Below are positions 1-30,953 of a stretch of 64,000 nucleotides of DNA, one piece after another. The stretch is taken from contig JANLFQ010000003.1 in NCBI GenBank assembly GCA_024653355.1, positions 74,944-138,943 of the forward strand. The letters are read 5' to 3'. The notes beneath the pieces were generated by a model that saw nothing but the letters and a program-made list of their open reading frames with translations, did not search any database and was not told the DNA's origin. The position numbers and the translations under genes are program-made. How positions within the stretch are numbered: the first letter of the stretch is position 1; every line of letters starts with the position of its first letter. The stretch is from a candidate division WOR-3 bacterium. GTDB lineage: Bacteria > Hydrothermota > Tepidihabitantia > Tepidihabitantales > Tepidihabitantaceae.

Positions 1-1718
<1,718 letters not shown>

Positions 1719-1765
1719 CGTCAGTCTGCTTCTTCTCCTTAATTGTTTTACAATATGGAGTAAGA

Positions 1766-1885
1766 TTCCCGGCGGTGATACCGGAGGGGAAACACCTCTT
1801 CCCATTCCGAACAGAGTCGTTAAGCCCTCCAGGGCCGATGGTACTGCGCTGGTAACGGCGTGGGAGAGTAGGTCGCTGCCGGGTT
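1766..1885 (+). rRNA. rrf: 5S ribosomal RNA
   Basis: ~120 nt with 5S hallmarks (CCGGCGG 5' end, CCGAAC, GTAGT.GGG..AGAGTAGG, 3' CTGCCGGG pairing with the 5' end), followed by a T-run. Confidence 0.9.
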
Positions 1886-1907
1886 TTTTTCTTTTATAAG
1901 AATTTTC

Positions 1908-1936
1908 TTGACAAAAGGAGATTTTTTTGGTATATT
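1908..1936 (+). promoter_or_regulatory. sigma70-type promoter (TTGACA-17-TATATT) upstream of the first pilin gene
   Basis: Exact -35 TTGACA at 1908-1913, 17-nt spacer, -10 TATATT at 1931-1936. Confidence 0.5.
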
Positions 1937-2063
1937 TTTTATGAGAGCAGAGAAATGCGATGCGCTCAACTACCCTTTTTTTATTCACTCAACAAAAGGT
2001 CTGGTTGGTGCATAAGCGTTTCGTCTGGTCTCACATCCCTAAAAAGAAAGGAGGTGCAGTAAA

Positions 2064-2699
2064 ATGAAGAACCGAGGCTTTACACTGATCGAGCTACTCG
2101 TGGTGATCCTGATTATCGGTATCTTGCTCGCTTTGATCATCCCGAACTTCGTGTTGTTCCAGGAGCGTGCTCGTCGTTCTTCTGTGAAGAACAATATGCA
2201 CGTTATCCAGACCGCGCTCGAGGCTTTTGCTGTCGACCACTACGGTAACTATCCGAACGAGGATGTTTCCTGGGATCCCGGTGATGAGGCTGGTATCTGT
2301 CTGTGGTTCCCGGGTGGTGACCCAGTGGGAATCGACGGAGAACCCAAGCCGGGCAACTTCCCGGTCAATCCTTACGATGGTAAGCGCTACAACGACGAAG
2401 ACAAGGACGAGATGGACCTGAACTACGAGGACTTCTTCGGCGAACTGGAGCCGGGTCAGAACGCCCAGATTCGGGGCAACGACGAGGAGTGTCCGTACCT
2501 TGATGCCGGCGGTACACCTGAATATCCAGGTGGTATCGGTATTATGACCTATGTTCCGGGCATCGGAAACGAGACTCCTCAGGAGTACGGCATCTACGGC
2601 TTTGGTCGTGATGTCGCATATCCTATGTACGACTTGGACCCGATGGCGGACGATCCGACCGACGAAGAGTCCTGGATTTTCTTCGTCCTGCACAACTAA
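2064..2699 (+). CDS. Type IV pilin / pseudopilin-like protein with prepilin N-terminus and acidic C-terminal domain
   Basis: N-terminus MKNRGFTLIELLVVILIIGILLA (class III signal, G/F cleavage site, Glu+5); SD AAAGGAGG upstream; D/E/G/P/Y-rich C-terminal part ending FFVLHN. Confidence 0.85.
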   Translation: MKNRGFTLIELLVVILIIGILLALIIPNFVLFQERARRSSVKNNMHVIQTALEAFAVDHYGNYPNEDVSWDPGDEAGICLWFPGGDPVGIDGEPKPGNFPVNPYDGKRYNDEDKDEMDLNYEDFFGELEPGQNAQIRGNDEECPYLDAGGTPEYPGGIGIMTYVPGIGNETPQEYGIYGFGRDVAYPMYDLDPMADDPTDEESWIFFVLHN

Positions 2700-2716
2700 T
2701 ACCTCCGCAGACCTTA

Positions 2717-2748
2717 CGGGGTGGGGTTAAAGCCCCACCCCGTTTTTT
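2717..2748 (+). terminator. Intrinsic terminator after pilin gene
   Basis: Perfect 10-bp stem CGGGGTGGGG / CCCCACCCCG followed by TTTTTT. Confidence 0.75.
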
Positions 2749-2754
2749 GTTTGC

Positions 2755-2782
2755 TTGACTGGTAGATATTTGATTTTATAAT
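2755..2782 (+). promoter_or_regulatory. sigma70-type promoter (TTGACT-16-TATAAT) abutting the ABC ATPase start codon
   Basis: -35 2755-2760, -10 2777-2782; a second TATAAT at 2789-2794; ATG at 2793. Confidence 0.45.
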
Positions 2783-2792
2783 GCAGTCTATA

Positions 2793-3755
2793 ATGTCATC
2801 AGTTGTAAGAAAGCCGGTAATTGAAACGGTCCGATTGACCAAGTTTTATCGCACTGGTTTTAGGATGAAGCGGGTGCGAGCGCTGGTGGATTTAAATCTT
2901 CAAGTTGAGAAGGGGGAAATCTTCGGTTTTTTGGGACCGAATGGCGCCGGAAAGACAACAGCGATTAAAATCATCATCGGTCTCGCAAAGCCCACCCAGG
3001 GTTTTGCTACCGTCCTGGGCAAACCACCAAGAGACCACCGGGTTAAAAAGTCGGTTGGTTTTTTACCGGAGTCGCCCTATTTTTATGAATATTTGACCGC
3101 GGCAGAGTTTCTGGAATTGACCGCACAACTTTCTGGGGTGCCAAGAGGGGAATTGAAACCGCGTGTACGCGAGATGTTAAAGATGGTGCGGATGGAGCAT
3201 GCCGCCCATATTCAGATGAAGGGTTTTTCTCGGGGGATGTTGCAACGGATTGGGATTGCCCAGGCGCTAATTCACGACCCAGAGGTGGTGGTGTTGGATG
3301 AGCCAATGGGCGGGCTTGACCCGATTGGCAGGAAAGAGTTCCGGGACATTATCCTCAGCCTTAGAGACCAGGGAAAGACCGTATTTTTCTCAACCCATAT
3401 CCTCGCCGATGTGGAGATGATATGTGACCGGGTGGGTATCATTGTTGGTGGCAAGATGGTGAAGGCGGGTAGATTGAATGAAATTCTTACTTCGGAGGTG
3501 GAGGCGATTGAAGTTACGGTGAGAGGGGCGCAGGGCAAGTTCCGTAAGGCGCTGGAGCGAGTTGCACAAAAGGCATTTGATTCCGGAGAGTTTTTGATGC
3601 TTACGGTTAAGGATGATGATGATGTGGAACGGATAATGGCAATCACCCGGGAGGCCGGGGCAAAAGTTACAGCGATTGTGCCTCGTACCAAGACGCTGGA
3701 GGATTTCTTTATGAGTCAGGTAAAGTCCCTCCTTGAGGAGCGAGAAAATGTTTAA
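2793..3755 (+). CDS. ABC transporter ATP-binding protein (ABC-2/DrrA-like)
   Basis: Walker A GPNGAGKTT, ABC signature, Walker B VVVLDEPMGGLD; ORF track starts at 2781 but that ATG overlaps the -10 box, so 2793 is preferred. Confidence 0.85.
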   Translation: MSSVVRKPVIETVRLTKFYRTGFRMKRVRALVDLNLQVEKGEIFGFLGPNGAGKTTAIKIIIGLAKPTQGFATVLGKPPRDHRVKKSVGFLPESPYFYEYLTAAEFLELTAQLSGVPRGELKPRVREMLKMVRMEHAAHIQMKGFSRGMLQRIGIAQALIHDPEVVVLDEPMGGLDPIGRKEFRDIILSLRDQGKTVFFSTHILADVEMICDRVGIIVGGKMVKAGRLNEILTSEVEAIEVTVRGAQGKFRKALERVAQKAFDSGEFLMLTVKDDDDVERIMAITREAGAKVTAIVPRTKTLEDFFMSQVKSLLEERENV

Positions 3756-4515
3756 CCGGGTATTCGGTGTGGCGTTAAACACCTTTCGGGAGTCTTTGCG
3801 GGACCGGGTCCTGGTGGCTTTGATTGTTACAGCGATTGTGGTGATGGCCGGTGCAAAGGTGATTCAACCGGTGGCGATGGGTGAGGCAGATAAAATCATT
3901 AAGGATTTAGGGTTATCGGCGATTACGCTTTTCTGTGTGTTGATTGCGGTTTTGGTGGGCGGGCGAATAGTTTATCGCGAGGTGGAGAAAAGAACTATTT
4001 ACTTGATTCTGGCTCGGCCGGTAAGAAGGTTAGAGTTCATCCTGGGTAAGTATCTGGGTCTAATGGCGGTTTTGGTATTGAGTTTGTTGATAATGACCGC
4101 CGGGTTTTACCTAATCCTTTTGATTTCCCGGGTGTCGGTGACGCTTTATTTACTGTGGGCGGTTTTGATGACGGCGTTTGAGCTGGCGCTGCTCACCGCG
4201 GTGGCGGTTTTCTTTTCAACCTTTGTAACGCCGATTGCCAGTTCGGTATTTACCTTTATTATATATTTCATTGGCCATAGCACCTATTTACTTAAACAGC
4301 TGGCAGCGATGAGTCCGGTACCGGCAATAAAGTTTTTGGGCGTCGTCCTTTACTACATACTGCCCAATTTAGGAAATTTTAATATCAGGGGTGATGTTGT
4401 ATACGGTGTGCCCTTAAATCCTCAGGCTTTGGTACTTTCCGCCCTGTACGGCCTGGTCTATAGTTTGACACTTCTTTTGATTGCGGTGATGATTTTCAAC
4501 CGCAAGGATTTTTAA
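3748..4515 (+). CDS. ABC-2 family transporter permease
   Basis: Six predicted hydrophobic helices; start overlaps the ATPase stop by 8 nt. Confidence 0.75.
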   Translation: MFNRVFGVALNTFRESLRDRVLVALIVTAIVVMAGAKVIQPVAMGEADKIIKDLGLSAITLFCVLIAVLVGGRIVYREVEKRTIYLILARPVRRLEFILGKYLGLMAVLVLSLLIMTAGFYLILLISRVSVTLYLLWAVLMTAFELALLTAVAVFFSTFVTPIASSVFTFIIYFIGHSTYLLKQLAAMSPVPAIKFLGVVLYYILPNLGNFNIRGDVVYGVPLNPQALVLSALYGLVYSLTLLLIAVMIFNRKDF

Positions 4516-5406
4516 GTGAAGATTACAGAGGTTACCGCCCCGGTACCAAAGGGTCCTGGGTTGTTGATTAATATCCTGCCCGTGGTTGTGGTTGTCTGGG
4601 GGTTTGTAGGTGTCTACCTGCTTCAGTTGGCGATTGATTCCACCAGTCGAAGGCAGGGTGAAAGGTTGATGCAGGAACTTGCCTATTTTCCGTCAGGTGT
4701 GGCGTTGCGCGAGGCGGTGATTGAGTATCGGGAAATTGTTGCCGATTTTATATGGCTAACGGCGATTGACTACTACGGGCGTCATCAGGAGACGGACCGC
4801 CGTTACGAGTGGCTCGGGCACATTTTTGAGATTCTCACAACGCTTGACCCCAGGTTTGTCGGTGCCTACCACTTTGGGGCAATTACCCTTGCCTGGGATG
4901 CGCATAAACCGATTGAGGCGTTGCGGTTGCTGTTGAACGGCATGAAGGCAAATCCGCTCAACTGGCAGTTACCCTTTGATGCTGGATTCATAAATTATAT
5001 GTTGACAGGCGATTACAAGTCGGCAGCGCAACTGTTTCAGGTTGCGGCAGAGTTACCGGGTGCCTGGACCGTAGTTTCCCGGTGGGTGCCCTACATAACC
5101 GCCAAGGCGGGCGATTTTGAAACGGCACGGCAGATGTGGAAAGATTTGTATTACTCAACTGAGAACAAGAAGTTGCGGGAGTTGATAATCCGCCAGCTGC
5201 AAGTGCTGAAACTTGAAGAGGGCATCGCTCGTTTACAGGAGGCGGTTGACCAATTTTATGAAAAGGAGAAGCGACTGCCGAACAGAATTGAGGAACTGGT
5301 CAGGCAGGGGTATATCAAAGAGATTCCTGAAGAGCCCTTTGGCGGAAAGTATTTCATAGAAAACGGCAAAGTGCGTAGTACGACTCAGCCCGGTTTAATA
5401 AAATAA
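4516..5406 (+). CDS. Membrane-anchored protein with helical (TPR-like) soluble domain
   Basis: GTG start immediately after the permease stop; N-terminal TM helix LLINILPVVVVVWGFVGVYLL; no recognised catalytic motif. Confidence 0.6.
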   Translation: MKITEVTAPVPKGPGLLINILPVVVVVWGFVGVYLLQLAIDSTSRRQGERLMQELAYFPSGVALREAVIEYREIVADFIWLTAIDYYGRHQETDRRYEWLGHIFEILTTLDPRFVGAYHFGAITLAWDAHKPIEALRLLLNGMKANPLNWQLPFDAGFINYMLTGDYKSAAQLFQVAAELPGAWTVVSRWVPYITAKAGDFETARQMWKDLYYSTENKKLRELIIRQLQVLKLEEGIARLQEAVDQFYEKEKRLPNRIEELVRQGYIKEIPEEPFGGKYFIENGKVRSTTQPGLIK

Positions 5407-5428
5407 GATTGGGCGATGAAGTTTTAAC

Positions 5429-5457
5429 TTGACAAATGAGGTAAATATTTGATAATT
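5429..5457 (+). promoter_or_regulatory. sigma70-type promoter (TTGACA-17-ATAATT) for second pilin gene
   Basis: -35 5429-5434, -10 5452-5457, SD GGAG before the ATG at 5479. Confidence 0.45.
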
Positions 5458-5478
5458 ATTATCAGAACAGGAGACGAT

Positions 5479-6015
5479 ATGAACTTTAAAAATGATGGCT
5501 TTACTCTGGTTGAGCTCCTGGTAGTGATAATGATCTTAGGTGTGTTGATGGGGATGTCGGTACCGAGGTTTTCTGGTATCAGAGAGCAGGCGCGGGTTGG
5601 AGCGATGAAAATGAATCTCCACAATGTCCAGGTGGCGATTGAAACCTTTCATCAGGAGTTTGGATATTACGCCGAGGATTTCTACGAGGACGGCTATGGC
5701 TGTATTTTTCCCGGTGGGGAGTACGATGTGAGAATCGGTAAATTGCCCACTAATCCCTGGACCGGAAAAGAGATGGACCCGGATGAGTTTAATCCCGAGG
5801 AGTATGATGACATTACCGATATAAGTAATACCAGTGAATATGGTCCCAACGATGTTTCCGGTTACGACCCGGGCAATATCGTTTACAGTGTCTGGGACCC
5901 ACCGGGTTCGGCTTATCCTTTGAATTACGGGCTTGTTGGTATTGACCATAGCGGGTCTTCAATCCGCGATTATGATGCGGACGGAGATGCAATAATATTT
6001 GTGTTACACAATTAA
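5479..6015 (+). CDS. Type IV pilin / pseudopilin-like protein, acidic paralog of the 2064 gene
   Basis: MNFKNDGFTLVELLVVIMILG prepilin N-terminus; acidic D/E/Y/G-rich C-terminal region ending IIFVLHN, as in the first pilin. Confidence 0.8.
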   Translation: MNFKNDGFTLVELLVVIMILGVLMGMSVPRFSGIREQARVGAMKMNLHNVQVAIETFHQEFGYYAEDFYEDGYGCIFPGGEYDVRIGKLPTNPWTGKEMDPDEFNPEEYDDITDISNTSEYGPNDVSGYDPGNIVYSVWDPPGSAYPLNYGLVGIDHSGSSIRDYDADGDAIIFVLHN

Positions 6016-6056
6016 TGGTGGATGATATGCTTGACAGCCGATTTGATAAGTCTATA

Positions 6057-6608
6057 ATGCGTTTAGTGTTTAAGAAGGTCCGCACCGCCTCGGGTTTTAC
6101 CCTCATTGAACTTTTAGTCGTGATATCGGTCCTCGGTATCCTGATGGCTTTCTTTTTCCCGACGATGATTTCCCGGATTACAAACAACACCCGCCGTACC
6201 GCGACCATTCAGGAGATGAACGCGCTGCGCGAAGCGATTGTCGGCAATCCCGATGTGCGAGTTGGCGGGGAGATTGTTGGTACCGGTTTTAAGCAGGATG
6301 TGGGGAGACTGCCGCGGCACCTGATTGAACTTGTTACCCGTAATCCGTTTGACGGTATGTATGCGCAGGTAATGTACCTTGGCAAGGAAACACTTCCGGG
6401 CTGGGACCCGTATATTCAGAAAGGGTGGAATGGTCCTTATATTCGCGAAGACGGTCAGATGGGTTATCTTTATGATGCCTGGGGAACCCCTTATCAATAC
6501 TGGGTAGAAAACAACGAGACGCTTGGTTTAAAAAGCGCCGGTCCGGATGGTCTTTTTTATGGTCAGCCCGGAGCGGTCAAGGATGACGATATTAAGATGA
6601 GGTTTTAA
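6057..6608 (+). CDS. GspG/PulG-like pseudopilin
   Basis: Prepilin N-terminus ...SGFTLIELLVVISVLGIL; GspG-like motif DAWGTPYQY; start uncertain (ORF opens at 6015; ATG 6027 and 6057 are alternatives). Confidence 0.75.
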   Translation: MRLVFKKVRTASGFTLIELLVVISVLGILMAFFFPTMISRITNNTRRTATIQEMNALREAIVGNPDVRVGGEIVGTGFKQDVGRLPRHLIELVTRNPFDGMYAQVMYLGKETLPGWDPYIQKGWNGPYIREDGQMGYLYDAWGTPYQYWVENNETLGLKSAGPDGLFYGQPGAVKDDDIKMRF

Positions 6609-7411
6609 TGAAGAGATTGGATAAGGGCGTAACTCTCGTGGAACTTCTGGTGGTCTTGATGATTCTCAGTTTAATCTTAACGGCCGCGATTAAAACCTGG
6701 GATGTAACACTGGAAAGAGGCCGATTTGAGCAGACCCGTCAGAAACTTGACCGGCTGGCAAAAGCGATTACCGGAGACCCGGACTATGTAATTGGTGGCG
6801 TGCGCGCCGATTTCGGGTTTATTGGTGATATGGGCTGTCTACCCCGAACTCTTGCCGACCTTGCCAATCAACCGAACTGGGTTACACCCCCGGAGAGCAG
6901 CCGTTGGCGCGGACCTTATGTCAAGGCACCATTTGCCGAGTCGCCCGAGGCTTATCGAATTGACGGCTGGGGCGATTCGATTGTTTTCAACCAGGATAGT
7001 TTGTTCCTCCGCAGTTACGGTGGTGGTGGGCTTGTAACTCCAGCCCGCTGGCTCACCCGTTCTTTGGGTTACACCCGCAATGACCTTTTGTCCAATACGG
7101 TTGATGGCTGGGTGGTTGACCAAAGAGGAGAACCACCGCCCGATAGCGTGGCGCCAAGGGTAATTGTGCAACTGGAATATCCCAGAGATGGACGGACTTT
7201 CCGGGATACAACTTCAATCAGGCCGGGAACAAACGGTGCGTTTGATTTCATCGGCATTCCGCAGGGTGTGCATACATTGCGCGCGATGTTCTGGCATTAC
7301 TATCCCCCACCACCGCGTTGTGATACGGTCGTTAAGGTGCTAACGGTTTTACCGCGGGTAGGGGCAAGAGGGATTGAGGTAAGAATGAATGTAGACTGGA
7401 GTAATCCGTGA
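6608..7411 (+). CDS. Pseudopilin-like protein with C-terminal extension domain
   Basis: MKRLDKGVTLVELLVVLMIL prepilin N-terminus; ...DGWGDSIVF motif; extra ~130-aa C-terminal domain; start overlaps upstream stop (TAATG). Confidence 0.75.
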   Translation: MKRLDKGVTLVELLVVLMILSLILTAAIKTWDVTLERGRFEQTRQKLDRLAKAITGDPDYVIGGVRADFGFIGDMGCLPRTLADLANQPNWVTPPESSRWRGPYVKAPFAESPEAYRIDGWGDSIVFNQDSLFLRSYGGGGLVTPARWLTRSLGYTRNDLLSNTVDGWVVDQRGEPPPDSVAPRVIVQLEYPRDGRTFRDTTSIRPGTNGAFDFIGIPQGVHTLRAMFWHYYPPPPRCDTVVKVLTVLPRVGARGIEVRMNVDWSNP

Positions 7412-7412
7412 G

Positions 7413-8558
7413 GTGTTTATGAAAAAGCAGCACGGTTTTACTTTAATGGAACTGCTGGTGGTTTTGTTGATCATCGGCGTTTTAAGCACCGTTGCGGTCC
7501 GGACAATTGATGCGACAAGGGACCGTTCCCTTTTTGACCAGACAGCAAAGGAGATGAGGGAGCTGGTTTATGCGATGGTTGGCAACCCGGATATAATGGC
7601 TAATGGTCGGAGGGTAGATTTTGGATTTTACGGCGACATGATGCGCTTGCCGAACGATTTGAAGGAACTGGTCGAGAACACGACCGGTTCGCCTTATTGG
7701 CGTGGTCCCTATCTCCGCCGGGAGTTCTTGCAGGATACGATGGGTTATCGATTGGATGCTTGGGGAAACCCCTATACTTATGACCGGAGTACCGGTACGA
7801 TTGCCACACTGGGAAATGGCAAGTATCCGATGACGATGCGCGTTGCTGAGGCGATATCCCATTTGACTGACAACTGGGTGATGGGAAATGTTTCGGATGC
7901 CGAGAATGTTCCTCCTGGTGATAAGGCGGTAACGATTGGAATTAAGTTGTATCTCCCCAACGGCTCGTTTTATTTTACTCGACCCGACCCCGGTGGTTTT
8001 TACCAGTTTACTCCCCAGACGCACGGACCGGTGCCGATTGGCGTTCATAAAATAGTTGCCAACCGCCCCGGAGGAGATTCTATTGTGCGCTGGGTCACAG
8101 TGACGCCGCGCAGTAAAGTGATGGTGGACTTTCGGTTTACCGGTTCATTCCGCAACTACCTGGAGATGATTGGTGAGCCGCTGCTTTTCGGTGACAGTTC
8201 TGGTTTTACCATTAAGGTTGTCAACAGCGGGTCAACTGTTGACACGGTTAAATCGATAAAGTTACTTATTGCGCCGGATAGCGCCTATCTGGGTTTTTTG
8301 CGGATTTACAGCGTCACCCAGGGCGGAACGCCCCAAGAACAACAGTTTTCCCCCCGTAAGGGACAGGGGGACAGTTTAATTGTGTATCCTCCGTTTTCCA
8401 TCCAGCCCGGCAAAGCGGAGGAGGTTCAGTTCAGTTTTTACGGGTTCTGCAAGACCCCGAGTATTGCGGATTCGACGAAGGCAAACATCTACAATAAACT
8501 TTTTCGATTGAGGTTTAATGATGGTTCGGAGTTTGCCGTCACACCGGTGCGTCCGTGA
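7413..8558 (+). CDS. Pseudopilin-like protein with large C-terminal extension (candidate tip or adhesin minor pilin)
   Basis: MFMKKQHGFTLMELLVVLLIIGVL prepilin N-terminus; DAWGNPYTYD motif; ~250-aa C-terminal beta-rich extension. Confidence 0.75.
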   Translation: MFMKKQHGFTLMELLVVLLIIGVLSTVAVRTIDATRDRSLFDQTAKEMRELVYAMVGNPDIMANGRRVDFGFYGDMMRLPNDLKELVENTTGSPYWRGPYLRREFLQDTMGYRLDAWGNPYTYDRSTGTIATLGNGKYPMTMRVAEAISHLTDNWVMGNVSDAENVPPGDKAVTIGIKLYLPNGSFYFTRPDPGGFYQFTPQTHGPVPIGVHKIVANRPGGDSIVRWVTVTPRSKVMVDFRFTGSFRNYLEMIGEPLLFGDSSGFTIKVVNSGSTVDTVKSIKLLIAPDSAYLGFLRIYSVTQGGTPQEQQFSPRKGQGDSLIVYPPFSIQPGKAEEVQFSFYGFCKTPSIADSTKANIYNKLFRLRFNDGSEFAVTPVRP

Positions 8559-8579
8559 CGGCGGAAATAAGGAGGTACA

Positions 8580-10184
8580 TTGGCAACTAAGGTCTTTGGC
8601 GGGGGTGGCAAAGGCACCCTCTGTATTGATATCGGTTCCAATTCGGTAAAGTTTGTAAAGGTAGAAGGTGGCCGGGTTGTTGACTATGGTCTGAAGGAGA
8701 TCGGTGAGGCGTTTGATGTTCCCTCAATTCTCCGTGAGTTGATCAAGGATTACAAGCCGCGCGAGGTGTACACATTTGTCTCCGGTCCATCGGTCAGCGT
8801 GCGTCAGGCGCCGTTCCCCAAGATGAATCGCCGGGAATTGAAAGAGGCGATTCTTTTACGATTGGATAAATACTCGCCCTTTACCCTTGACGAGGCGATA
8901 TTCGACTTTAAGACCCTCGGACCGGTGCGCGAGGCGGGGACGATAAAAGACAACGTTATGGTTATTGCGGCCCGCAAGGACATTGTCTCCGACCACATCT
9001 CGACCCTGCGCAAGGCGGGCCTTGAACCCACGACGATCAGCGTTGTGCCGTTTGCTTTGCAGGCGGCGGTTAAGAAGTTCGGCCGGGTCAGACCGGATGA
9101 AACGGTTTGTTTGCTTGATATCGGTGCCGAGTTTACCGATATGATATTTATGAAGGGAGAACGGCTTGATTTGGCGAGGACGGTGACGACCGCGGGCAAT
9201 GCGATTACCGAAGCAATGACGGTGGCGATTACAACCGAGGAAGGGCAACTGGCACTGGACGCCTACGATGCTGAGGAGTTAAAACGCAAGTACGGAATCC
9301 CGCCGGAAGATAGTCAGGAACGGCTTCCTTCGGGCATTATGGTGAAGCGATTGTTGACCCTGCAGCGGCCCGCGCTGGAGAGATTTGTTGCCGAGATCAA
9401 CCGGTCAATTGACTATTATCGCCGGGAGTTTGGCGAACAGAAGATCGACCGTCTGCTCATCTGCGGTGGTTCGGCAGCGATGAAGGGGCTGCGGGAGTAT
9501 CTACAGACCAGTTTGGGAATTCCAACGGAGATTTTTGACCCGTTCCGGGACTTTGGCCTTTATCGCAAAGCGACCGGTCCGGAAGAGGAAATCGGCTATC
9601 GTTTGGTTGCGGCGCTGGGGTTGTACTATGACCATTCCGCGGTGGACCTTTTGCCGGTTGAAATGAAGTCCGGTCGATTCATCGCACGCGATGTACGAAT
9701 GATGACCCTGGGTGGAATAGTGTGGGTAGGCATTTTAATCCTTGGTTACATTCTGGTTGCGGGCTGGACCGGCATTTCCAGTGGCCAGGTTTCCAAGTTG
9801 CGCAACGAGATTAAAGCAACTGAGGAGCAAAACCGGGGCTATTTTGCGCTTGAGAAGGAGATTGCTGACCTTGAGGCGCGGGAGCGAGCGCTGAAGAGTG
9901 TTGTCGGCGAAGTTTTGCCGACGGTCCCGGTGCTGGGTGCCCTTTCGACGATTGTCCCGACGAATATTCAGTTGAGCAGTTTTACATTGAGCAACCGTTC
10001 CAATGTGAAAATCACCGGTGTGGTTAGCGGTGAACCGCACCTGCTTGATGTCGACCTCGCCCAGTTCTTGATTGACCTCGAACGCAGCCAGGTGTTTAAA
10101 CAGGTACAGCTGGTTTCTAAGAACCGTAGTACCCTGCAGGGGGAAGCGGTTTTAGAGTTTGAAATCCAATGTGTCACGGAGTAA
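8580..10184 (+). CDS. pilM: Type IV pilus assembly protein, PilM (actin-like ATPase) fused to PilN
   Basis: TTG start with AAGGAGG SD; N-terminal ~350 aa with PilM-like CIDIGSNSVKFV and LICGGSA motifs; then TM helix, coiled coil and a PilN-like C-terminus. Confidence 0.75.
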   Translation: MATKVFGGGGKGTLCIDIGSNSVKFVKVEGGRVVDYGLKEIGEAFDVPSILRELIKDYKPREVYTFVSGPSVSVRQAPFPKMNRRELKEAILLRLDKYSPFTLDEAIFDFKTLGPVREAGTIKDNVMVIAARKDIVSDHISTLRKAGLEPTTISVVPFALQAAVKKFGRVRPDETVCLLDIGAEFTDMIFMKGERLDLARTVTTAGNAITEAMTVAITTEEGQLALDAYDAEELKRKYGIPPEDSQERLPSGIMVKRLLTLQRPALERFVAEINRSIDYYRREFGEQKIDRLLICGGSAAMKGLREYLQTSLGIPTEIFDPFRDFGLYRKATGPEEEIGYRLVAALGLYYDHSAVDLLPVEMKSGRFIARDVRMMTLGGIVWVGILILGYILVAGWTGISSGQVSKLRNEIKATEEQNRGYFALEKEIADLEARERALKSVVGEVLPTVPVLGALSTIVPTNIQLSSFTLSNRSNVKITGVVSGEPHLLDVDLAQFLIDLERSQVFKQVQLVSKNRSTLQGEAVLEFEIQCVTE

Positions 10185-10187
10185 AAT

Positions 10188-10763
10188 ATGGGGATACTTG
10201 AAAGAAGGGTAGTTATCATTGGACTGGCAGTATATGTTGTTTTAGGTGTCGCAGCCTGGTTTTTGCTTTATCAACCGCGGATAAACGCCCGGAACAAGGC
10301 GGCGAAGGAAATCGCCGAACTGCGCAAGGAGTTGGACGATACCAAAGCCCGAATTGCCCAGATGCCGCGTTTGCGGCAGAAGAAGGCGCAACTGGAGCAG
10401 GAGATAGGTGATATCTGGGCACGCGTTGTACCTCGTTCCGAGATGTTAGGGCTTTTCCGGCGAATTTCCCAGGAGGCAGAACAGGAGCGGGTGCACTTCT
10501 TAGAGATTGTGCCGCCGGGACTGGATACACTTCTCCAGGAAGAGGGACCGAGCGCGCAGGTGAGGCCGGTGCCTTTTCTTGTGACGGTTCAGGGGCGTTA
10601 TCTTGATATCGGCCGCTACATCCAGAACCTGAACGGTTATCAGTACTTTGTGCGCGTGCCCGATGTTGACATCAATGCCCGGGATGACATAAGACCGGAG
10701 ATTGAGGCGAAACTGCTGGTGAACATCTACGTGTCCAGTCTCGCGGGTGGGGGTAATTTGTGA
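10188..10763 (+). CDS. pilO: PilO-like pilus assembly protein
   Basis: N-terminal TM helix, coiled coil, C-terminal beta domain; position directly after PilM-N. Confidence 0.6.
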   Translation: MGILERRVVIIGLAVYVVLGVAAWFLLYQPRINARNKAAKEIAELRKELDDTKARIAQMPRLRQKKAQLEQEIGDIWARVVPRSEMLGLFRRISQEAEQERVHFLEIVPPGLDTLLQEEGPSAQVRPVPFLVTVQGRYLDIGRYIQNLNGYQYFVRVPDVDINARDDIRPEIEAKLLVNIYVSSLAGGGNL

Positions 10764-11840: not shown

Positions 11841-13442
11841 ATGAAAAATAAAACAACAGTTTTGGTTGTCATGTTCCTTGCCCTTATGGGTCTGTTAGCA
11901 GCCCAGGAGCAAATTGTCGTAAAGGATGTCGCGGTTGAAAAGTTGCTCGATGGTGTTCGGGTAACGATTGCCTGTAGCCAGACACCCAACATCAGTTCCT
12001 ATGTTTCTTATCAACCGCCGGCGCTGGTTGTCGATGTGATGGATGCGACTTCGAAGGTGGCGCAAGAGCGTATCACTTCCCGTTTCTACCCGGTGAGTGC
12101 GGTTACGGTTAAACCGAGCGATGCGACCAGCGGTGTTCGGGTAACTGTGTTTCTGCGCGATGTCGTGCGGCACCGGATTTACAACGAAGGCGGCGTGGTA
12201 ACGATTGATTTTGGAACAACACCTTTGATGCCCGCACCCGAAATCAAGAGTCAGGACCCGTTTGAGGGCAAGCCACCGCTAACGCTACTGGTTCAGGATG
12301 CTGACATTGCCAGCGTTTTGCGGATGATTGCCCGGCAGTTTGACCTCAACCTGCTGATCAGTCAGGATGTAAAGTCGATGGTGAGTGTCCGGTTGAATGA
12401 GGTGCCGCTGCGCGTTGGTGTGGAGGCGCTTTTGAAGGCGGCGGGCTGTAATATGGTGGAAGATAAGAGCGGGGTGATAATTGTAAAGCCGCTGAAGAAG
12501 CAGATGTATGGCGAGATGCAAACGCGGGTTTTTCGCCTTGACTACCTTGAAGCCAAGGATGCCAAGGAGGCGATTGCCAAGGCACTTTCGGAAAATGGAA
12601 CGGCCGAGATTGGTTTCAGCCGGGTCGGTACCAAGGCGGCAGGCGGTGAGGAGCGAAGCGGGATACTGGTGGTAACCGATGTGCCTGAGGCGCTTGATAA
12701 CATCGCACGCATAATTTCCGAACTGGACCGGCCGATGCCCCAGATTGCGATTGAGGCAAAGTTCATTGAGACCACCTATTCAAGTGAAGACCGCTACGGC
12801 ATTGACTGGACCCCAATCGCAACATTTTCTACCGAGATGCCCAAAATTAACGATGAGGTTGCAATTCCGGTGATTGTGAAAGAGATGCTTTTTGGCAAGA
12901 TATCGTTTTCTCAGTTCAGTGCCTCACTGGAGCTGCTGATGTCGCGGGGTAAATCACGGGTTCTTGCCAATCCCAGGACGGTGACGCTGGACAATCAAAC
13001 GGCGTCGATAAGTATGGGGCTGGATGTGCCAGTACGAGAAGTCCACAAAGACCCGAACACGGGAGAGATTACTTACACCTGGCGGACGCGGTCAATTCCG
13101 ATCAAGATGGATGTTACCCCCCATGTTACTTCCGATGGGATGATTACGATGCGGGTGAAACCCAGCGTTGAGGCAATTACCGGTTGGGTTGGCTCGGCCG
13201 ACGACCGCCAGCCGATTGTTGCCAAGCGGGAAGCCGAGACCCAGGTGAAAGTTGCTGAGGATGAGGTGGTGGTGATTGGCGGTTTGGTCAAGGACGAGGA
13301 GACGAAAAATGTTGGCAAGATTCCGCTCCTCGGTGACATTCCGATTATCGGGCATTTGTTTAAGAAGACATCGGTTCAGCGGAACAAGAGCGATTTGATG
13401 ATTTTTATCATCCCCCACATACTGATGCCCGAAAACGGATAG
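11841..13442 (+). CDS. pilQ: Secretin (PilQ/GspD family outer-membrane channel)
   Basis: Signal peptide; C-terminal secretin motifs VVVIGGLVKDEETKNVGKIPLLGDIPIIGHLFK...SDLMIFIIPHIL. Confidence 0.9.
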   Translation: MKNKTTVLVVMFLALMGLLAAQEQIVVKDVAVEKLLDGVRVTIACSQTPNISSYVSYQPPALVVDVMDATSKVAQERITSRFYPVSAVTVKPSDATSGVRVTVFLRDVVRHRIYNEGGVVTIDFGTTPLMPAPEIKSQDPFEGKPPLTLLVQDADIASVLRMIARQFDLNLLISQDVKSMVSVRLNEVPLRVGVEALLKAAGCNMVEDKSGVIIVKPLKKQMYGEMQTRVFRLDYLEAKDAKEAIAKALSENGTAEIGFSRVGTKAAGGEERSGILVVTDVPEALDNIARIISELDRPMPQIAIEAKFIETTYSSEDRYGIDWTPIATFSTEMPKINDEVAIPVIVKEMLFGKISFSQFSASLELLMSRGKSRVLANPRTVTLDNQTASISMGLDVPVREVHKDPNTGEITYTWRTRSIPIKMDVTPHVTSDGMITMRVKPSVEAITGWVGSADDRQPIVAKREAETQVKVAEDEVVVIGGLVKDEETKNVGKIPLLGDIPIIGHLFKKTSVQRNKSDLMIFIIPHILMPENG

Positions 13443-13487: not shown

Positions 13488-14624
13488 ATGAATATCGACG
13501 AACTCCTGCGCTATGCAGCAAAATACGGTGCCTCTGACCTCCATATCACTGCGGGCAATCCGCCGATAATCAGGGTTAACGGCAGACTAAAGAAAATTCC
13601 CGGACCAGCACTGACGGCAGAAGATGCCCAGTTGCTGGTCTACTCTATTCTCTCGGATGAACAGCGGGCGGCGGTTGAAAGAAAACGGGAGCTGGACCTT
13701 TCTTACACCTGGGGCGAGGCTTCGCACCATTTACCGCCGGAGGCGGTAACCCTTGATTATATCAGCCCGGAGCGGGTCCGGGCAAGGGTTAATGTATTTC
13801 TTGATTTAGGTGGGGTGGGGGCGGCATTTCGCATCATACCAGCAAAAATCCGGACGCTTGATGAGTTGCCGGCGCCCGCTTCGGTGGCGGAGCTGACGCG
13901 CAGCCATTCCGGACTGGTTCTGGTTACCGGTCCGACCGGTTGTGGGAAATCGACGACGCTGGCAAGTATGATTGACCTGATCGACCAGGAACGGGCGGTA
14001 CGGATAATCACGATTGAGGACCCGATTGAGTACATCTTTCAGCCCCGGAACTGCTTGATAAGTCAGCGGGAGATTGGCACCCATTCCCGTTCATTTGCCG
14101 CCGCGCTGCGGGCGTGTCTGCGGGAAGACCCGGATGTGATTCTGGTGGGCGAGATGCGGGATTTGGAAACTATCAGTCTCGCTTTGACCGCAGCCGAGAC
14201 CGGCCATCTGGTCCTTTCTACACTCCACACGAACAATGTTGCCCAGACTGTTGACCGGGTGATTGATGTCTTTCCTGCTGACCAGCAGGAGTATGTACGG
14301 CAGATTTTTGCCAATGTGATTCGCGGTATCATATCGCAGACCTTGTTGCCCCGGAAAGATGGTAGAGGAAGGGTGGCGGCGATGGAGGTTCTGGTTGCGA
14401 CACCGGCGGTCAAAAACCTTATTCGGGAGGCAAAGACCCACCAGATACCGTCACTGGTCCAGACCGGCTCTCAGTACGGGATGCAGACAATGGACCAGTG
14501 TTTAGAGTCGCTGATGGCAGAGGGGCTTATCGCTCCGGAGGTTGCCTATGCTGTCGCCAGCGACAAGAAACTTTTCACTCCTCCAGCCAGTCCGGTTTCA
14601 CCGCCCGGTCCGAAAGGGCAGTGA
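13488..14624 (+). CDS. pilT: Type IV pilus retraction ATPase PilT
   Basis: GASDLHIT, Walker A GPTGCGKST, Asp box, PilT signature AVKNLIREAKTHQIPSLVQTG. Confidence 0.9.
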   Translation: MNIDELLRYAAKYGASDLHITAGNPPIIRVNGRLKKIPGPALTAEDAQLLVYSILSDEQRAAVERKRELDLSYTWGEASHHLPPEAVTLDYISPERVRARVNVFLDLGGVGAAFRIIPAKIRTLDELPAPASVAELTRSHSGLVLVTGPTGCGKSTTLASMIDLIDQERAVRIITIEDPIEYIFQPRNCLISQREIGTHSRSFAAALRACLREDPDVILVGEMRDLETISLALTAAETGHLVLSTLHTNNVAQTVDRVIDVFPADQQEYVRQIFANVIRGIISQTLLPRKDGRGRVAAMEVLVATPAVKNLIREAKTHQIPSLVQTGSQYGMQTMDQCLESLMAEGLIAPEVAYAVASDKKLFTPPASPVSPPGPKGQ

Positions 14625-15421
14625 TTTACTTATTAACGCTAATTTTGGGTCTGGTTTTTGGTAGTTTTTTTAATGTTTGTATCTGGCGCATTCCGCGCGG
14701 TGAGTCAATAAATTATCCGCCTTCGCGCTGTCCGCGCTGCGGAAAACGCATCCGGTTTTACGACAACATCCCGGTAGTCAGCTTTTTAATTCTCCGGGGC
14801 CGGTGTCGGGATTGTGGTAAACCGATCGCAATTCGTTATCCACTTGTTGAACTTTTGAGCGGGCTCCTTTTCCTGTTAACCTATATCCGCTTTGGGCTCA
14901 ATCCGGCAATTCTGCGCCCGCTAACTTTTATCGGGTTTCTCGTCATTCTTGCCGGTATTGACATTGACCACAAGATACTGCCCTTCAGACTTTCGTTATC
15001 CGGCCTGATTCTGGGGATAATTTTTTCTTTCATCCCTCTGTTTCAGTTCAACATTGAAAAGGCTTTCTGGGGTGGTGTCATCGGCGCCGTGTTTGTGCTC
15101 TTTGCCTGGGCACTCTGGCGGTTTGTGCTGGCGAAGCCGTTTCGCCGTCTCGGGGTAAAAAGGGCAGAAGGGATGGGCTGGGGCGATTTGCCCTTTGCGG
15201 CGATGATTGGTGTTTATGTGGGACCAAAAGGTATGGTGGTGGCGCTGGCGGTGGCGGTGGTTAGCGGTGTGATAGCAGGGGTTTTGGGCCGCATCTGGGG
15301 CAAGACAAAGGCGGGTACTGAGGTGCCCTTTGGTCCATTTTTAGCCCTGGGCGGGCTGGTAGGGTTGTACTGGGGTGAGATGCTGTTTGACCTTTATCTG
15401 CGGGCGATAGGTTTAGCATAA
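14621..15421 (+). CDS. pilD: Prepilin peptidase (A24 family, PilD/GspO)
   Basis: Membrane protein with zinc-binding CPRCG..CRDCG pairs and A24 motifs; GTG start at 14621 overlaps the pilT stop (GTGA); the ORF-track start at 14498 is in another frame over pilT. Confidence 0.85.
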   Translation: MIYLLTLILGLVFGSFFNVCIWRIPRGESINYPPSRCPRCGKRIRFYDNIPVVSFLILRGRCRDCGKPIAIRYPLVELLSGLLFLLTYIRFGLNPAILRPLTFIGFLVILAGIDIDHKILPFRLSLSGLILGIIFSFIPLFQFNIEKAFWGGVIGAVFVLFAWALWRFVLAKPFRRLGVKRAEGMGWGDLPFAAMIGVYVGPKGMVVALAVAVVSGVIAGVLGRIWGKTKAGTEVPFGPFLALGGLVGLYWGEMLFDLYLRAIGLA

Positions 15422-24861: not shown

Positions 24862-25971
24862 TTACTGGTGCCGGCGGGTCTTGGTTCCGAACTCAACCAG
24901 CTCTCTAAACCCTTTGGGGTCAAACGCTGAAGAGATGGCGGTTTCGTAGGTGACCTTGCCCGCGCGGTAAAGTTCAGCCAGATAGGCGTCAAAAGAGATA
25001 CTACCTTCGGCGCTGCTGGTTTGAATGGCTGAAGGCAGGTGTTCGATTTTACGCTCCCGGATAAGGTTGCGGACCGCTGGAGTTGCCATCATCACCTCGT
25101 AACAACCGATTCGACCTTTACCCTCGGCACGGAGTAAGAGGCGCTGGGAGAAGATGGCGAGAAGGGAGATGGAGAACTGGATACGAATCTGGTCCCGGAT
25201 TTCCGGTGGGAAGATGTCGATAAACCGGGTAACGGTTTCCGGTGCGTTGGTGGTGTGGAGGGTGCCAATGACAAGGTGGCCCGATTCAGCAGCCCAGATT
25301 GTTGCTTCGGCGGTGGCGAGGTCACGAATTTCGGCAACCAGAATCACATTGGGGTTGGAACGTAACCCCTTCATAATCGCTTCCCGGAAGCTGGAAACAT
25401 CAACTCCAACCTCGCGCTGGGTGATAATACCCTTTTTGTGGTCGTGAACGAATTCAATCGGGTCTTCAATTGTCAAAACATGGCGCGGGCTTTCAAGGAT
25501 GTAATCAACAAAGGTCGCCTGAGTGGTTGTTTTTCCCATTCCCGTAGGACCGGTTACGAGAATTAAACCGTGAGGACGGTCAAGGAGCGACTTGATGCGC
25601 GGTATGAGATGGGTGGGTACAAACAGTTCTTCGAATGAGAGTATGCGCCGCGGGATGAGACGAAGGGCGAGCCCGAAATACCCCTTCTGTTTATAGACTG
25701 CAACCCGGAACCGAGCCATATTCTTAAAGTTAAGAGCAAAGTCACCACCGCCACCGTTGTCAATCTGGGCGCGCAGATGGCGCAGGTCCTTGGTGGCGAT
25801 GTTTTTGAAACTTTCCGTTTTCTCCGGAGTCAGGACCGGGTAACCTTCAATTGACTGCAGAAATCCATCGATACGAAATGTTGGCGGGCGCCCCACCGTG
25901 AGATGGAGGTCGGATGCGTTCCGGCGAATGCACTCCGCAAGGAGTGTCTCAAAGAATTCTTCGTCCGACAT
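24862..25971 (-). CDS. PilT/PilU-family twitching-motility ATPase (second copy)
   Basis: Walker A GPTGMGKTT, PilT signature AVRNLIRERKIEHLPSAIQTS; minus-strand TTGACA-16-TATAAT ends 10 nt before the ATG. Confidence 0.88.
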   Translation of the reverse strand: MSDEEFFETLLAECIRRNASDLHLTVGRPPTFRIDGFLQSIEGYPVLTPEKTESFKNIATKDLRHLRAQIDNGGGGDFALNFKNMARFRVAVYKQKGYFGLALRLIPRRILSFEELFVPTHLIPRIKSLLDRPHGLILVTGPTGMGKTTTQATFVDYILESPRHVLTIEDPIEFVHDHKKGIITQREVGVDVSSFREAIMKGLRSNPNVILVAEIRDLATAEATIWAAESGHLVIGTLHTTNAPETVTRFIDIFPPEIRDQIRIQFSISLLAIFSQRLLLRAEGKGRIGCYEVMMATPAVRNLIRERKIEHLPSAIQTSSAEGSISFDAYLAELYRAGKVTYETAISSAFDPKGFRELVEFGTKTRRHQ

Positions 25972-28697: not shown

Positions 28698-28741
28698 AAA
28701 ATATCATCGGGTATTAAGCGCTGATGTCAAGAATACCGCGG

Positions 28742-28770
28742 TTGACAAATAGATGGGATTGGTCATTATA
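28742..28770 (+). promoter_or_regulatory. sigma70-type promoter (TTGACA-17-ATTATA) abutting the serpin start
   Basis: -35 28742-28747, -10 28765-28770, ATG at 28778. Confidence 0.45.
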
Positions 28771-28777
28771 TTCAGGT

Positions 28778-29974
28778 ATGAACACCATCATTTTGATTGT
28801 CAGTCTTTTCTTATCCGCTTCGCGAGGAGCGGAAACCGGGGTAATTGATGCAGAGCTGGTTTCAGCAAAGAACGAGTTTGGGTTCAAGGTTCTTTCAGCA
28901 CTTGTCAGTACAGCGCCGCAGGAAAATGTGTTTATCTCGCCTTACAGTATTGCCACTGCTTTGACAATGACCTATAATGGTGCTGCCGGTTCCACCCGTA
29001 CCGCAATGGGGGCAACGCTTGGTGTTGGTGGTTTAGAGGTTCAGCGGCTTAACACCGGAGAAAAATTTCTTGCTGCAAGATTGCAGAGTGCTAAACCGGG
29101 TCTGGAACTGTTGATTGCTAACTCGCTCTGGGCGAGGAAAGGGGTGGCGTTTAATTCCGCTTTTTTGAACACTAACAAGGAGTTTTATCAGGCGGTGGTG
29201 GCGACGATTGATTTCAATAGCCCGGATGCAGCGAAAAAGATTAACCAATGGGTAAAGGATAAGACAAAAGGGAAAATCGACAAGGTCGTTGACCGGATTA
29301 AACCTGAGGCGGTGCTCTTTTTAATCAATGCGGTTTTCTTTAAGGGCAGATGGCAGGAGAAGTTCGACCCCAGGAACAGTCAGGATGATAAATTTTATCC
29401 GGATGATGCCCAACCGGTGCTTGTGAAGATGATGATGCGTTCGGGTAAATTCCGCTATCTGGAAACCGCGGAGTTTCAGGCGGTGGAGTTGCCTTACGAT
29501 GAGGGCAAGGTTAGTATGCTGATATTTTTACCGGCCCGCGGTAAACTGGACAGTTTGATTTCCCATCTGTCATCTTCCACCTGGCAGGAGTGGTGGAGCA
29601 GATTTCGGTCACGGGAGGGAACGGTTTGGTTGCCACGCTTCAAAATGGAGTATGAGAAGAGTTTAAAAGAGGTTTTAACAGAATTGGGGATGGGCGTGGC
29701 GTTTGACCTGAATCAGGCCGATTTTTCTTTAATGGGTAAAGGCGGTCCGGGTTTTGCCATCGGTGATGTGAAGCATAAGAGTTTTGTTGAAGTCAATGAA
29801 GAGGGCACGGAGGCGGCTGCGGTGACATCGGTGGAAATGGTTCTTGCGTCGGTACCTCCGCAACCTCGTTTTGAGATGGTTATCAATCGACCTTTCCTCT
29901 TCGCAATCCAGGATAATGAAACCGGCACAATTTTATTTCTCGGTGCAATGCGAAACCCCGCAGCGCATAATTAA
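28778..29974 (+). CDS. Serpin-family serine protease inhibitor, secreted
   Basis: Signal peptide MNTIILIVSLFLSA; serpin C-terminal motifs (...FVEVNEEGTEAAAVT... reactive-centre loop, ...NRPFLFAIQDNETGTILFLGAMRNP). Confidence 0.85.
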   Translation: MNTIILIVSLFLSASRGAETGVIDAELVSAKNEFGFKVLSALVSTAPQENVFISPYSIATALTMTYNGAAGSTRTAMGATLGVGGLEVQRLNTGEKFLAARLQSAKPGLELLIANSLWARKGVAFNSAFLNTNKEFYQAVVATIDFNSPDAAKKINQWVKDKTKGKIDKVVDRIKPEAVLFLINAVFFKGRWQEKFDPRNSQDDKFYPDDAQPVLVKMMMRSGKFRYLETAEFQAVELPYDEGKVSMLIFLPARGKLDSLISHLSSSTWQEWWSRFRSREGTVWLPRFKMEYEKSLKEVLTELGMGVAFDLNQADFSLMGKGGPGFAIGDVKHKSFVEVNEEGTEAAAVTSVEMVLASVPPQPRFEMVINRPFLFAIQDNETGTILFLGAMRNPAAHN

Positions 29975-30917: not shown

Positions 30918-30946
30918 TTGACTGATATTACTATTTTTGCTATAAT
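30918..30946 (+). promoter_or_regulatory. sigma70-type promoter (TTGACT-17-TATAAT) abutting the kinase/EBP start
   Basis: -35 30918-30923, -10 30941-30946, ATG at 30954; direct repeat TGTCGCA at 30888 and 30908 just upstream. Confidence 0.5.
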
Positions 30947-30953
30947 TCACACA

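Follow-up and report, generated by a model that had tools for sequence, protein, structure and literature searches.

Why does one pilus locus encode two strongly acidic pilins with the same last five residues, and which part does each of them play in the filament? The question is raised by a 64,000-nucleotide stretch of contig JANLFQ010000003.1 from a candidate division WOR-3 bacterium (the window), in which two prepilin genes, here called pilin A and pilin B, lie on either side of a block of ATP-binding cassette (ABC) exporter genes. In the original prediction, which was made from the DNA letters alone, the two were described as acidic pilin paralogs, each with its own promoter, and were proposed to be alternative major subunits or a metal-binding or adhesive pilin type. 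Our analysis points to two paralogous pilins with an undescribed head. With fair probability they serve as the major and a minor subunit of one retractile type IVa pilus machine.

Two pilins with a common head and tail

The two genes of interest are located as follows:

2064..2699, plus strand: pilin A, 211 amino acids (aa), MKNRG followed by FTLIELL..., ending in WIFFVLHN; acidic VLHN-type head
5479..6015, plus strand: pilin B, 178 aa, MNFKNDG followed by FTLVELL..., ending in AIIFVLHN; acidic A-like paralog

The original prediction had placed both genes and their features correctly and had assigned canonical prepilin N-termini to them. Both proteins start with a short basic leader ending in Gly (MKNRG before FTLIELLVVILIIGILLALIIP in A, MNFKNDG before FTLVELLVVIMILGVLMGMSVP in B), followed by Phe at +1, Glu at +5 and about 20 hydrophobic residues. 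Both pass the cut-offs of PF07963 (N_methyl; A 33.6 and B 33.4 bits against 21.2) and of TIGR02532 (A 32.5 and B 29.1 bits against 16.3). A motif scan of the whole window detected exactly five prepilins, the remaining three being pilins C, D and E, which are encoded downstream of B.

A and B are strongly acidic, with isoelectric points (pI) of 4.05 and 4.13 and net charges of -26 and -20. At -0.12 and -0.11 charges per residue they are the two most acidic products among the 43 open reading frames (ORFs) of the window (mean 0.004, standard deviation 0.048). This acidity is specific to A and B and not a proteome-wide trait, since both lie more than two standard deviations from the ORF mean and pilins C, D and E have pI values of 5.9 to 9.1. 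The heads of A and B are rich in Gly (11-12.5%), Pro (7-10%) and Tyr (7-8%), and pilin C is also generally rich in these residues. The description of the heads as low-complexity domains had to be abandoned. SEG masks just the hydrophobic helix (residues 7-25 in A, 9-25 in B) and leaves the heads unmasked, many head positions are invariant and the structure predictions are confidently folded.

A BLASTP comparison of A with B gave 38% identity over 122 columns (E 2e-20), with most of the identity within the first 60 residues. In an alignment of the heads alone, both share G-x-Y, FPGG, G-x-[FL]-P-x-N-P-[YW], Y-G-[IL]-x-G and the terminal x-F-[VL]-L-H-[NS], so that conserved columns are present throughout the heads and the proposed paralogy is upheld. 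Both proteins do end in the same pentapeptide, FVLHN. Five C-terminal residues common to two unrelated proteins would be roughly a one-in-a-million event. The original prediction was to be given up if the likeness of the tails proved to be compositional only; the pairwise alignment revealed conserved positions.

The motifs were also found in more distant relatives. A search with B returned 103 relatives of 51-87% identity, nearly all of 177-178 aa and from WOR-3, and 102 of these end in H-[NS] within the pattern [IVM]-F-[VL]-[LIV]-H-[NS]. For A, the best 120 of a larger set of matches were 52-98% identical and came from WOR-3 and Latescibacteria, with an LHN end in 112 of them. A profile of the head, run against 1.84 billion cluster representatives, found 67 clusters (50% identity) at E <= 0.001, and the family therefore appears to be small. 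When 39 mutually divergent members were aligned, N102, P103 and G156 were invariant (39/39), followed by Y175 (37/39), N211 (35/39) and H210 (32/39). In 33 of these 39 divergent clusters the motif is the literal C-terminus, with HN as the last pair. The general pattern of this end, over about 220 homologues and the 39 clusters, is [FYI]-F-[VL]-L-H-[NS]. All named members come from the uncultured candidate groups WOR-3, Latescibacterota and TA06. We propose to call this the VLHN-head pilin family. As judged from the alignments, A and B both carry all of its head motifs as well as the tail, and they are genuine type IV pilins whose heads belong to a family not described before. Among the papers of the library that was searched, none deals with WOR-3 pilins. 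Many of the metagenome-assembled genomes (MAGs) with members of the family derive from hot-spring samples, according to isolate names and one hot-spring study.

Structure prediction by AF2 with the family alignments yielded a mean local confidence (pLDDT) of 93.2 and a predicted template modelling score (pTM) of 0.84 for A, and values of 87.9 and 0.74 for B. The model of A comprises a long N-terminal helix (residues 8-58), a loop sub-domain that spans residues 59-157 (about 100 residues, against about 70 in B) and four strands (158-163, 174-179, 189-191 and 204-210). The helix packs on the four-stranded antiparallel sheet, as in the alpha-beta roll of pilins. The last strand (204-210 in A, 171-177 in B) has pLDDT values above 90, and the VLHN tail is predicted to be this final strand of the sheet, stopping exactly at the C-terminus. 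Since nothing follows the last strand, the family would have no D-region. Neither A nor B shows the classical type IVa D-region closed by a disulfide (PAK/gonococcal type): 69 of 93 B homologues have no cysteine in the head, and the A family has C143 in 115 of 117 members with no constant partner. The run I-F-F-V-L is all hydrophobic, which suggests that the strand is buried on both faces. Taken jointly with the assignment of roles discussed below, it is rather probable that the tail belongs to the structural core of the fold and is neither a signal for sorting nor an accident of composition.

Comparison with known structures and models extended through the N-terminal part of the proteins. The full-length profile of A matched pilins in the PDB through the first ~60 residues (the N-terminal helix) only, the head-only profile matched nothing in the PDB at E <= 10, and Foldseek found no significant match there (best E 0.31). 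The GspG model TIGR01710 gave 55.2 bits for A and 44.1 bits for B against a cut-off of 88.85, covering residues 4-67 only, and neither protein matched PF08334. The best NCBIfam match of A was the Myxococcus PilA model NF041775, with 60.6 bits against a cut-off of 400 and over residues 2-66 only. Moreover, a comparison of the A/B head with the GspG-like head of pilin C by hhalign returned a probability of 0.9%.

Expression signals and the roles of A and B

The following elements were located around the pilin genes. Promoter-like sites were scored out of 12, and those reported score at least 11. Lengths are in nucleotides (nt).

1908..1936, plus strand: promoter of pilin A; TTGACA, 17-nt spacer, TATATT with extended TG; 11/12
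2047..2056, plus strand: ribosome-binding site of pilin A, AAAGGAGGTG; read from the sequence, perfect
2716..2743, plus strand: intrinsic terminator after A; 12-bp GC-rich stem, then a T-run; dG -33.2 kcal/mol, z = -6.5
2755..2782, plus strand: promoter of the ABC genes; TTGACT, 16-nt spacer, TATAAT; 11/12
5429..5456, plus strand: promoter of pilin B; TTGACA, 16-nt spacer, GATAAT; 11/12
6031..6058, plus strand: promoter of pilin C and downstream genes; TTGACA, 16-nt spacer, TATAAT; perfect, 12/12

A promoter scan of positions 1700-8700 gave 16 sites against 7.8 +/- 2.6 in shuffled sequences, and the best four are situated exactly 5' of A, the ABC genes, B and C. These elements are kept across 9 to 12 orthologous loci while their flanks drift. 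CTTGACA-N16/17-TAnAAT precedes A in 12 loci, at a distance of about 110-130 nt from the start codon, and ACTTGACA-N16/17-[TG]ATAAT precedes B in nine. A CTTGAC -35 element follows the A terminator in most orthologous loci, and the promoter of pilin C is kept in 9/9. On the strength of this phylogenetic footprint the regulatory signals are real, in agreement with the sigma70-like promoter that had been predicted for each of the two pilin genes. A terminator had also been predicted for A, and here a GC-rich hairpin is found 3' of the stop codon in 19 of 19 loci, with a T-run in most; the stems differ and the pairing is kept. With these signals on both sides, A is to all appearances insulated and monocistronic, and its leader measures about 110-130 nt. 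No terminator was found 3' of B, where the promoter of pilin C is located instead.

The A[AG]AGGAGGTG part of the ribosome-binding site of A is identical in 11 of 11 aligned leaders. Analysis of the leader (~120 nt) with RNAalifold gave no conserved RNA structure other than a 7-pair hairpin between the Shine-Dalgarno (SD) sequence and an anti-SD sequence, with no compensatory changes. In this region (2030-2056 and orthologues) ATCC[CT]T, 15-20 nt to the 5' side, can pair with AGGAGGTG and may form a small hairpin for translational control. The promoter of pilin C lies inside the ORF called from 6015, and in most of the nine loci a GTG is found 7-8 nt past its -10 element. The mRNA of pilin C is probably leaderless, with a GTG start near 6066, and the ORF from 6015 is probably too long.

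The codon bias of A is the strongest among the tabulated plus-strand genes, whereas B has ordinary-to-poor usage and an ordinary ribosome-binding site. The C-ending share of two-fold pyrimidine-ending codons is 0.74 in A compared with 0.37 in B and about 0.37 in other plus-strand genes (range 0.22-0.51). CGY accounts for 0.71 of the Arg codons in A and for 0.20 in B, with other plus-strand genes mostly under A (0.09-0.60), and GGY for 0.88 and 0.60 of the Gly codons (other plus-strand genes 0.29-0.86). Among the ORFs of the window, C-ending codons make up about 0.5-0.78 on the minus strand and about 0.3-0.5 on the plus strand, and this asymmetry makes the 0.74 of the plus-strand gene A stand out more. 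Because of its codon bias, its promoter, its perfect ribosome-binding site and its own terminator, A is probably a very highly expressed gene that encodes the major pilin. B is probably a low-abundance A-like subunit, since its gene stands ahead of those for three non-acidic pilins and of pilMNOPQ in a kept order and uses ordinary codons.

The explanation that we favour, and hold to be fairly probable, is that A and B are paralogous major and minor subunits which share a single retractile pilus machine of type IVa. This machine would include PilD, a PilM-N fusion, PilO, PilQ and two PilT ATPases. A would be the filament-forming pilin; a promoter and a terminator of its own, a leader of ~120 nt, the perfect ribosome-binding site and optimal codons would make its gene an insulated unit of high output. 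B would be produced at lower output from its own promoter at the head of C, D, E and the pilMNOPQ block, and its transcription would read through into those genes. Most likely, B would join the filament of A as an A-like subunit. It could link a neutral or basic priming complex of C, D and E to the A polymer, as is proposed for PilE or FimU and GspH, or else it could be interspersed in the shaft. With about -25 charges on each A subunit, the surface of the resulting filament would be strongly anionic, a trait that would be selected in the polymerising members.

PilE and FimU of Pseudomonas aeruginosa, as well as GspH, are major-like minor pilins that join the priming complex to the filament. 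B is comparable in that it resembles A, is the first of four non-A pilins before pilMNOPQ and looks weakly expressed. However, B is preceded by a promoter of its own and occurs as an orphan in one genome, and the likeness is one of position and resemblance only. Several observations weigh against our assignment. Codon bias is a mere proxy for expression, and the strand-dependent skew in the window is strong. B is an orphan stand-alone gene in one genome (L026), and it has its own conserved promoter; both observations would fit an independent filament subunit equally well. The B family has kept an anionic surface, with a mean net charge of -18.7 across 93 homologues. None of the minor-pilin models was passed by B (GspH gave 25.6 bits against a cut-off of 80, for the N-terminal segment only). 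Besides, pilB and pilC are absent from the window, so the machine is not seen complete.

Some of these observations would also suit the strongest competing explanation, in which B is an alternative major pilin that forms a second filament type on the same machine under other conditions, in the manner of the wide PilA4 and narrow PilA5 pili of Thermus thermophilus. The own conserved promoter of B and the orphan monocistronic gene in L026 argue for it, as do a sequence and a length of 177-178 aa that are highly conserved. The surface of B is strongly acidic, as is usual for the polymerising members, in contrast to the neutral or basic pilins C, D and E. Nevertheless, codon usage and ribosome-binding site of B are ordinary, unlike those of A, and with no terminator 3' of it the gene runs into pilin C and the pilMNOPQ genes. 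Moreover, an A gene is located beside B in the syntenic loci. The alternative major subunits of the original prediction are therefore not favoured, given the unequal codon bias and the read-through from B. A second filament type is a live rival, though an unlikely one.

Charge, versions of the head outside pilins and a possible cation site

On average, members of the A family have a net charge of -24.7 and those of the B family one of -18.7, and pilin versions of the head range from -15 to -29. The head, together with the C-terminal half of the pilin helix, also occurs in proteins without a prepilin signal (P0135, P0250, P0237, P0241, P0256, P0259, P0239, P0244, P0247, P0249 and P0273). It follows a zinc-ribbon and DUF4190 membrane anchor in P0135 (L028 2321-3208), in P0250 (L029 1525-2442) and, by reading of the sequence, in P0259. 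In P0239, P0244, P0247, P0249 and P0273 it is found behind other N-terminal regions of about 190-350 residues. Most non-pilin versions have kept the terminal VLHN, and P0135 is 65% identical to A. The net charge of the non-pilin fusions is about -8 to +1, with the exception of P0135, whose head has -25. In L028 the P0135 gene is situated among genes for small DUF4190, CD225 and DUF2752 membrane proteins and a YukD-ThiF-JAB system.

Since most non-pilin fusions keep VLHN and yet are near neutral, the HN terminus appears to go with the fold, and the extreme acidity mainly with members that would polymerise into an exposed filament. Cation binding, prevention of bundling, and repulsion from or adhesion to charged surfaces are possible roles of the charge.

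The metal-binding or adhesive pilin type of the original prediction leads to a second idea, which is compatible with any role of A and B. The C-terminal His-Asn-carboxylate might form a cation site, possibly together with D58, H59 and the lone C143. Such a site would staple the head instead of a disulfide or the calcium of GspG, or it would give the pilus a metal-binding or mineral-adhesive function. The A family keeps H210 and N211 in 115 of 117 members, D58 in all 117, H59 in 114 and C143 in 115 with no partner cysteine. In the 33 of 39 clusters in which the chain ends exactly at HN, the free carboxylate is fixed in position. The VLHN-head family has no conserved disulfide, and the surface is very acidic. 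However, D58, H59, C143 and H210 are lost independently in divergent members. B-type and TA06-type proteins keep HN without DH and C143, and P0229, P0260 and P0261 keep DH and C143 without H210. In addition, the non-pilin fusions keep HN but are not acidic, and no metal-binding family or structure was matched. In view of these losses we regard the cation site as doubtful.

A single His/His/Cys/Asp site or a cupredoxin-like His2-Cys-Met site was considered and is not supported: the residues are lost independently of one another, and outside the A family M188 is not kept. Residues that are lost independently give no support to one joint site, although HN alone might form a site. A slightly less likely form of the idea is that the VLHN head is an unrecognised extracellular domain whose His-Asn-carboxylate binds a ligand or cation, helped in A-type proteins by D58, H59 and C143. 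If this were true, the site and the approximately -25 charges per subunit would produce a polyanionic, metal- or mineral-binding filament. The head on zinc-ribbon/DUF4190 anchors would then be a non-polymerising version that acts as sensor or receptor.

The locus and its relation to known pili

The remaining features of the locus are listed below.

1-1719: 3' part of a 23S rRNA gene, with which the window opens
1768..1884, plus strand: 5S rRNA (Rfam RF00001, 108 bits), the end of a 23S-5S operon directly 5' of pilin A
2781..3755, plus strand: ATPase of an ABC-2-type exporter, DrrA/GldA type (PF00005, E 3e-27)
3733..4515, plus strand: ABC-2 permease (PF12679, E 3.9e-11; conserved synteny)
4516..5406, plus strand: uncharacterised accessory protein of 296 aa, with an N-terminal hydrophobic segment (probably membrane) and a TPR-like region
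6057..6608, plus strand: pilin C, GspG-like head (N_methyl; T2SSG 19.3 bits); the ORF listed from 6015 probably starts too early
6608..7411, plus strand: pilin D, 267 aa, basic (N_methyl; pI 8.9)
7413..8558, plus strand: pilin E, 381 aa, basic, GspG-like core and C-terminal extension (N_methyl 35.1 bits; weak T2SSG; pI 9.05)
8580..10184, plus strand: PilM-PilN fusion (PF11104, E 5e-35; PF05137)
10188..10763, plus strand: PilO (PF04350, E 3.8e-12)
11841..13442, plus strand: PilQ secretin with AMIN domain (PF00263, E 7e-46; PF03958; PF11741)
13488..14624, plus strand: PilT-family retraction ATPase (TIGR01420, 449.9 bits against a cut-off of 319.1)
14498..15421, plus strand: PilD prepilin peptidase (PF06750, E 3e-37; PF01478); the listed ORF overlaps pilT
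24862-25971, minus strand: second PilT-family ATPase (TIGR01420, 370.7 bits against a cut-off of 319.1), 10 kb off the pilus locus

The ABC ATPase also matched TIGR01188 with 224 bits and GldA with 203 bits, each under its cut-off. Its true start is probably the ATG at 2794, because the -10 element of the promoter overlaps the ATG at 2781. Similarly, the true start of PilD is probably near 14620; the orthologue in L001 has 265 aa. Pilin C ends with the signature ...DAWGTPYQY...SAGPDG...DDDIKMRF. Between PilO and PilQ there are two small ORFs without assignment. Apart from a weak TPR_16 match, the 296-aa accessory protein has no relative in Pfam, NCBIfam or the PDB. By eye, its C-terminus (5260-5400), ...RLPNRIEELVRQGYIKEIPEEPFGGKYFIENGKV, looks like the 'LP..L.eLv..gyl..iP.DPWG.pY' of GspG-like pseudopilin heads; no Pfam T2SSG match was obtained for it. 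A bacterial serpin gene is present at 28724-29974 (plus strand), near the second PilT-family ATPase. Further downstream, 30918-36203 (plus strand) encodes a 1761-aa regulator with Ser/Thr kinase, AAA_16, TPR repeats, GAF, sigma54-activator and Fis-type helix-turn-helix domains. The pilin promoters look sigma70-type, and no link of this regulator to the pilus genes is implied.

The closest database relatives of the locus are MAGs labelled candidate division WOR-3, among which contig L006 is 97-99% identical across the locus. The order A, ABC ATPase, ABC-2 permease, accessory protein, B, C, D, E, PilMN, PilO is kept in L001-3, L006-L012, L014, L015 and L027, spanning identities from 99% down to about 60%. 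The block of ABC ATPase, ABC-2 permease and 296-aa protein between A and B also occurs in L001-3, L006-L012, L014-L016 and L027, and the accessory gene of the orthologous loci is always found between the permease gene and B.

In the window and 12 other loci, an A-type gene is positioned directly 3' of the 23S-5S operon, on the same strand and 160-590 nt past the 5S gene (window 1-2064; L004 5484-9286; L030 3726-7292; L008, L020-L023, L025, L027, L006, L007 and L014). Both WOR-3 and Latescibacterota are represented among these loci, and the A proteins encoded there share 47-99% identity with that of the window; about ten other loci are without the arrangement. A T-run follows the 5S gene in every locus, with a hairpin terminator there in Latescibacterota, and every A gene has its own promoter. 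Therefore, read-through from the rRNA operon is not needed as a reason for the linkage. The rRNA linkage and the ABC trio between the pilin genes constitute an unexplained genome organisation.

Two pilins in one organism are also known from Thermus thermophilus, which has wide PilA4 and narrow PilA5 pili (PDB 6xxd, 6xxe). The resemblance to our locus lies in the presence of two pilin genes in one organism and in the hot-spring origin of many MAGs with the family. However, only about 99 residues align at 11-19% identity, and no sequence similarity was detected past the N-terminal helix. The solved chain of PilA4 has 125 residues, compared with 211 in A and 178 in B.

In Streptococcus sanguinis, PilE1 and PilE2 are two paralogous major pilins of one heteropolymeric pilus (PDB 8pfb). 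By analogy, A and B could be co-major subunits of a heteropolymer. The N-terminal helices of A and B are closely related, with most of the A-B identity in the first 60 residues, and fold and charge character are alike in both. Nevertheless, such an arrangement is improbable. Codon bias and translation signals are very unequal, and comparable amounts of A and B are unlikely. Cells of S. sanguinis have just one membrane and lack a secretin, and its gene partners are near-equal in contrast to the very unequal expression signals found here. Moreover, Latescibacterota with two tandem A-type genes and no B indicate that B is not needed for an A-type filament. These tandem genes (L004 9286-10657, L030 7292-8651 and L020 1437-2805) encode proteins that are each 53-54% identical to A, and they have no adjacent B-type gene or ABC trio. 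In L004 a terminator-like hairpin separates them. That tail and Gly/Pro/Tyr-rich acidic composition are a chance likeness of two unrelated low-complexity pilins is practically refuted by the E value of 2e-20, the shared head columns, the SEG result, pLDDT values of 88-93 and a motif kept in more than 200 homologues.

The heads of GspG-type pseudopilins (PulG 5wda, EpsG 4lw9) are stapled by calcium and not by a disulfide. Like these, the VLHN head has no conserved disulfide and an acidic loop before a short C-terminal strand, and its N-P-[YW]-x-G recalls D-P-W-G-x-P-Y. However, the heads of A and B are much larger than that of the solved PulG chain, which has 134 residues in all. GspG-like heads are present in the adjoining pilins C, D and E.

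In Myxococcus xanthus, the pilA-pilG-pilH-pilI genes include an ABC ATPase, a permease and an accessory factor that are needed for piliation (PMC3546991, PMC3724824). Similar to our locus, a large major pilin (PilA, 208-residue chain, 8tj2) is directly followed by ABC exporter genes. The order in M. xanthus is accessory factor, ATPase, permease, whereas here it is ATPase, permease, accessory protein, and the likeness is one of gene kind and position. In contrast to the M. xanthus operon, A has its own terminator and would not be co-transcribed with the ABC genes.

Our findings leave the general view of type IV pilus function unchanged. The classification of type IV pilins rests on their head domains, which determine adhesion, charge, recognition by phages and the mechanics of the filament. 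Among these heads the VLHN head is unusual: it has no solved relative, no disulfide staple or recognisable calcium site of the GspG type, a near-invariant His-Asn end and an anionic character. The family is therefore a concrete target for structural work. Furthermore, a pilin ending in VLHN may serve as a simple marker in metagenomes for the pili of WOR-3, Latescibacterota and TA06.

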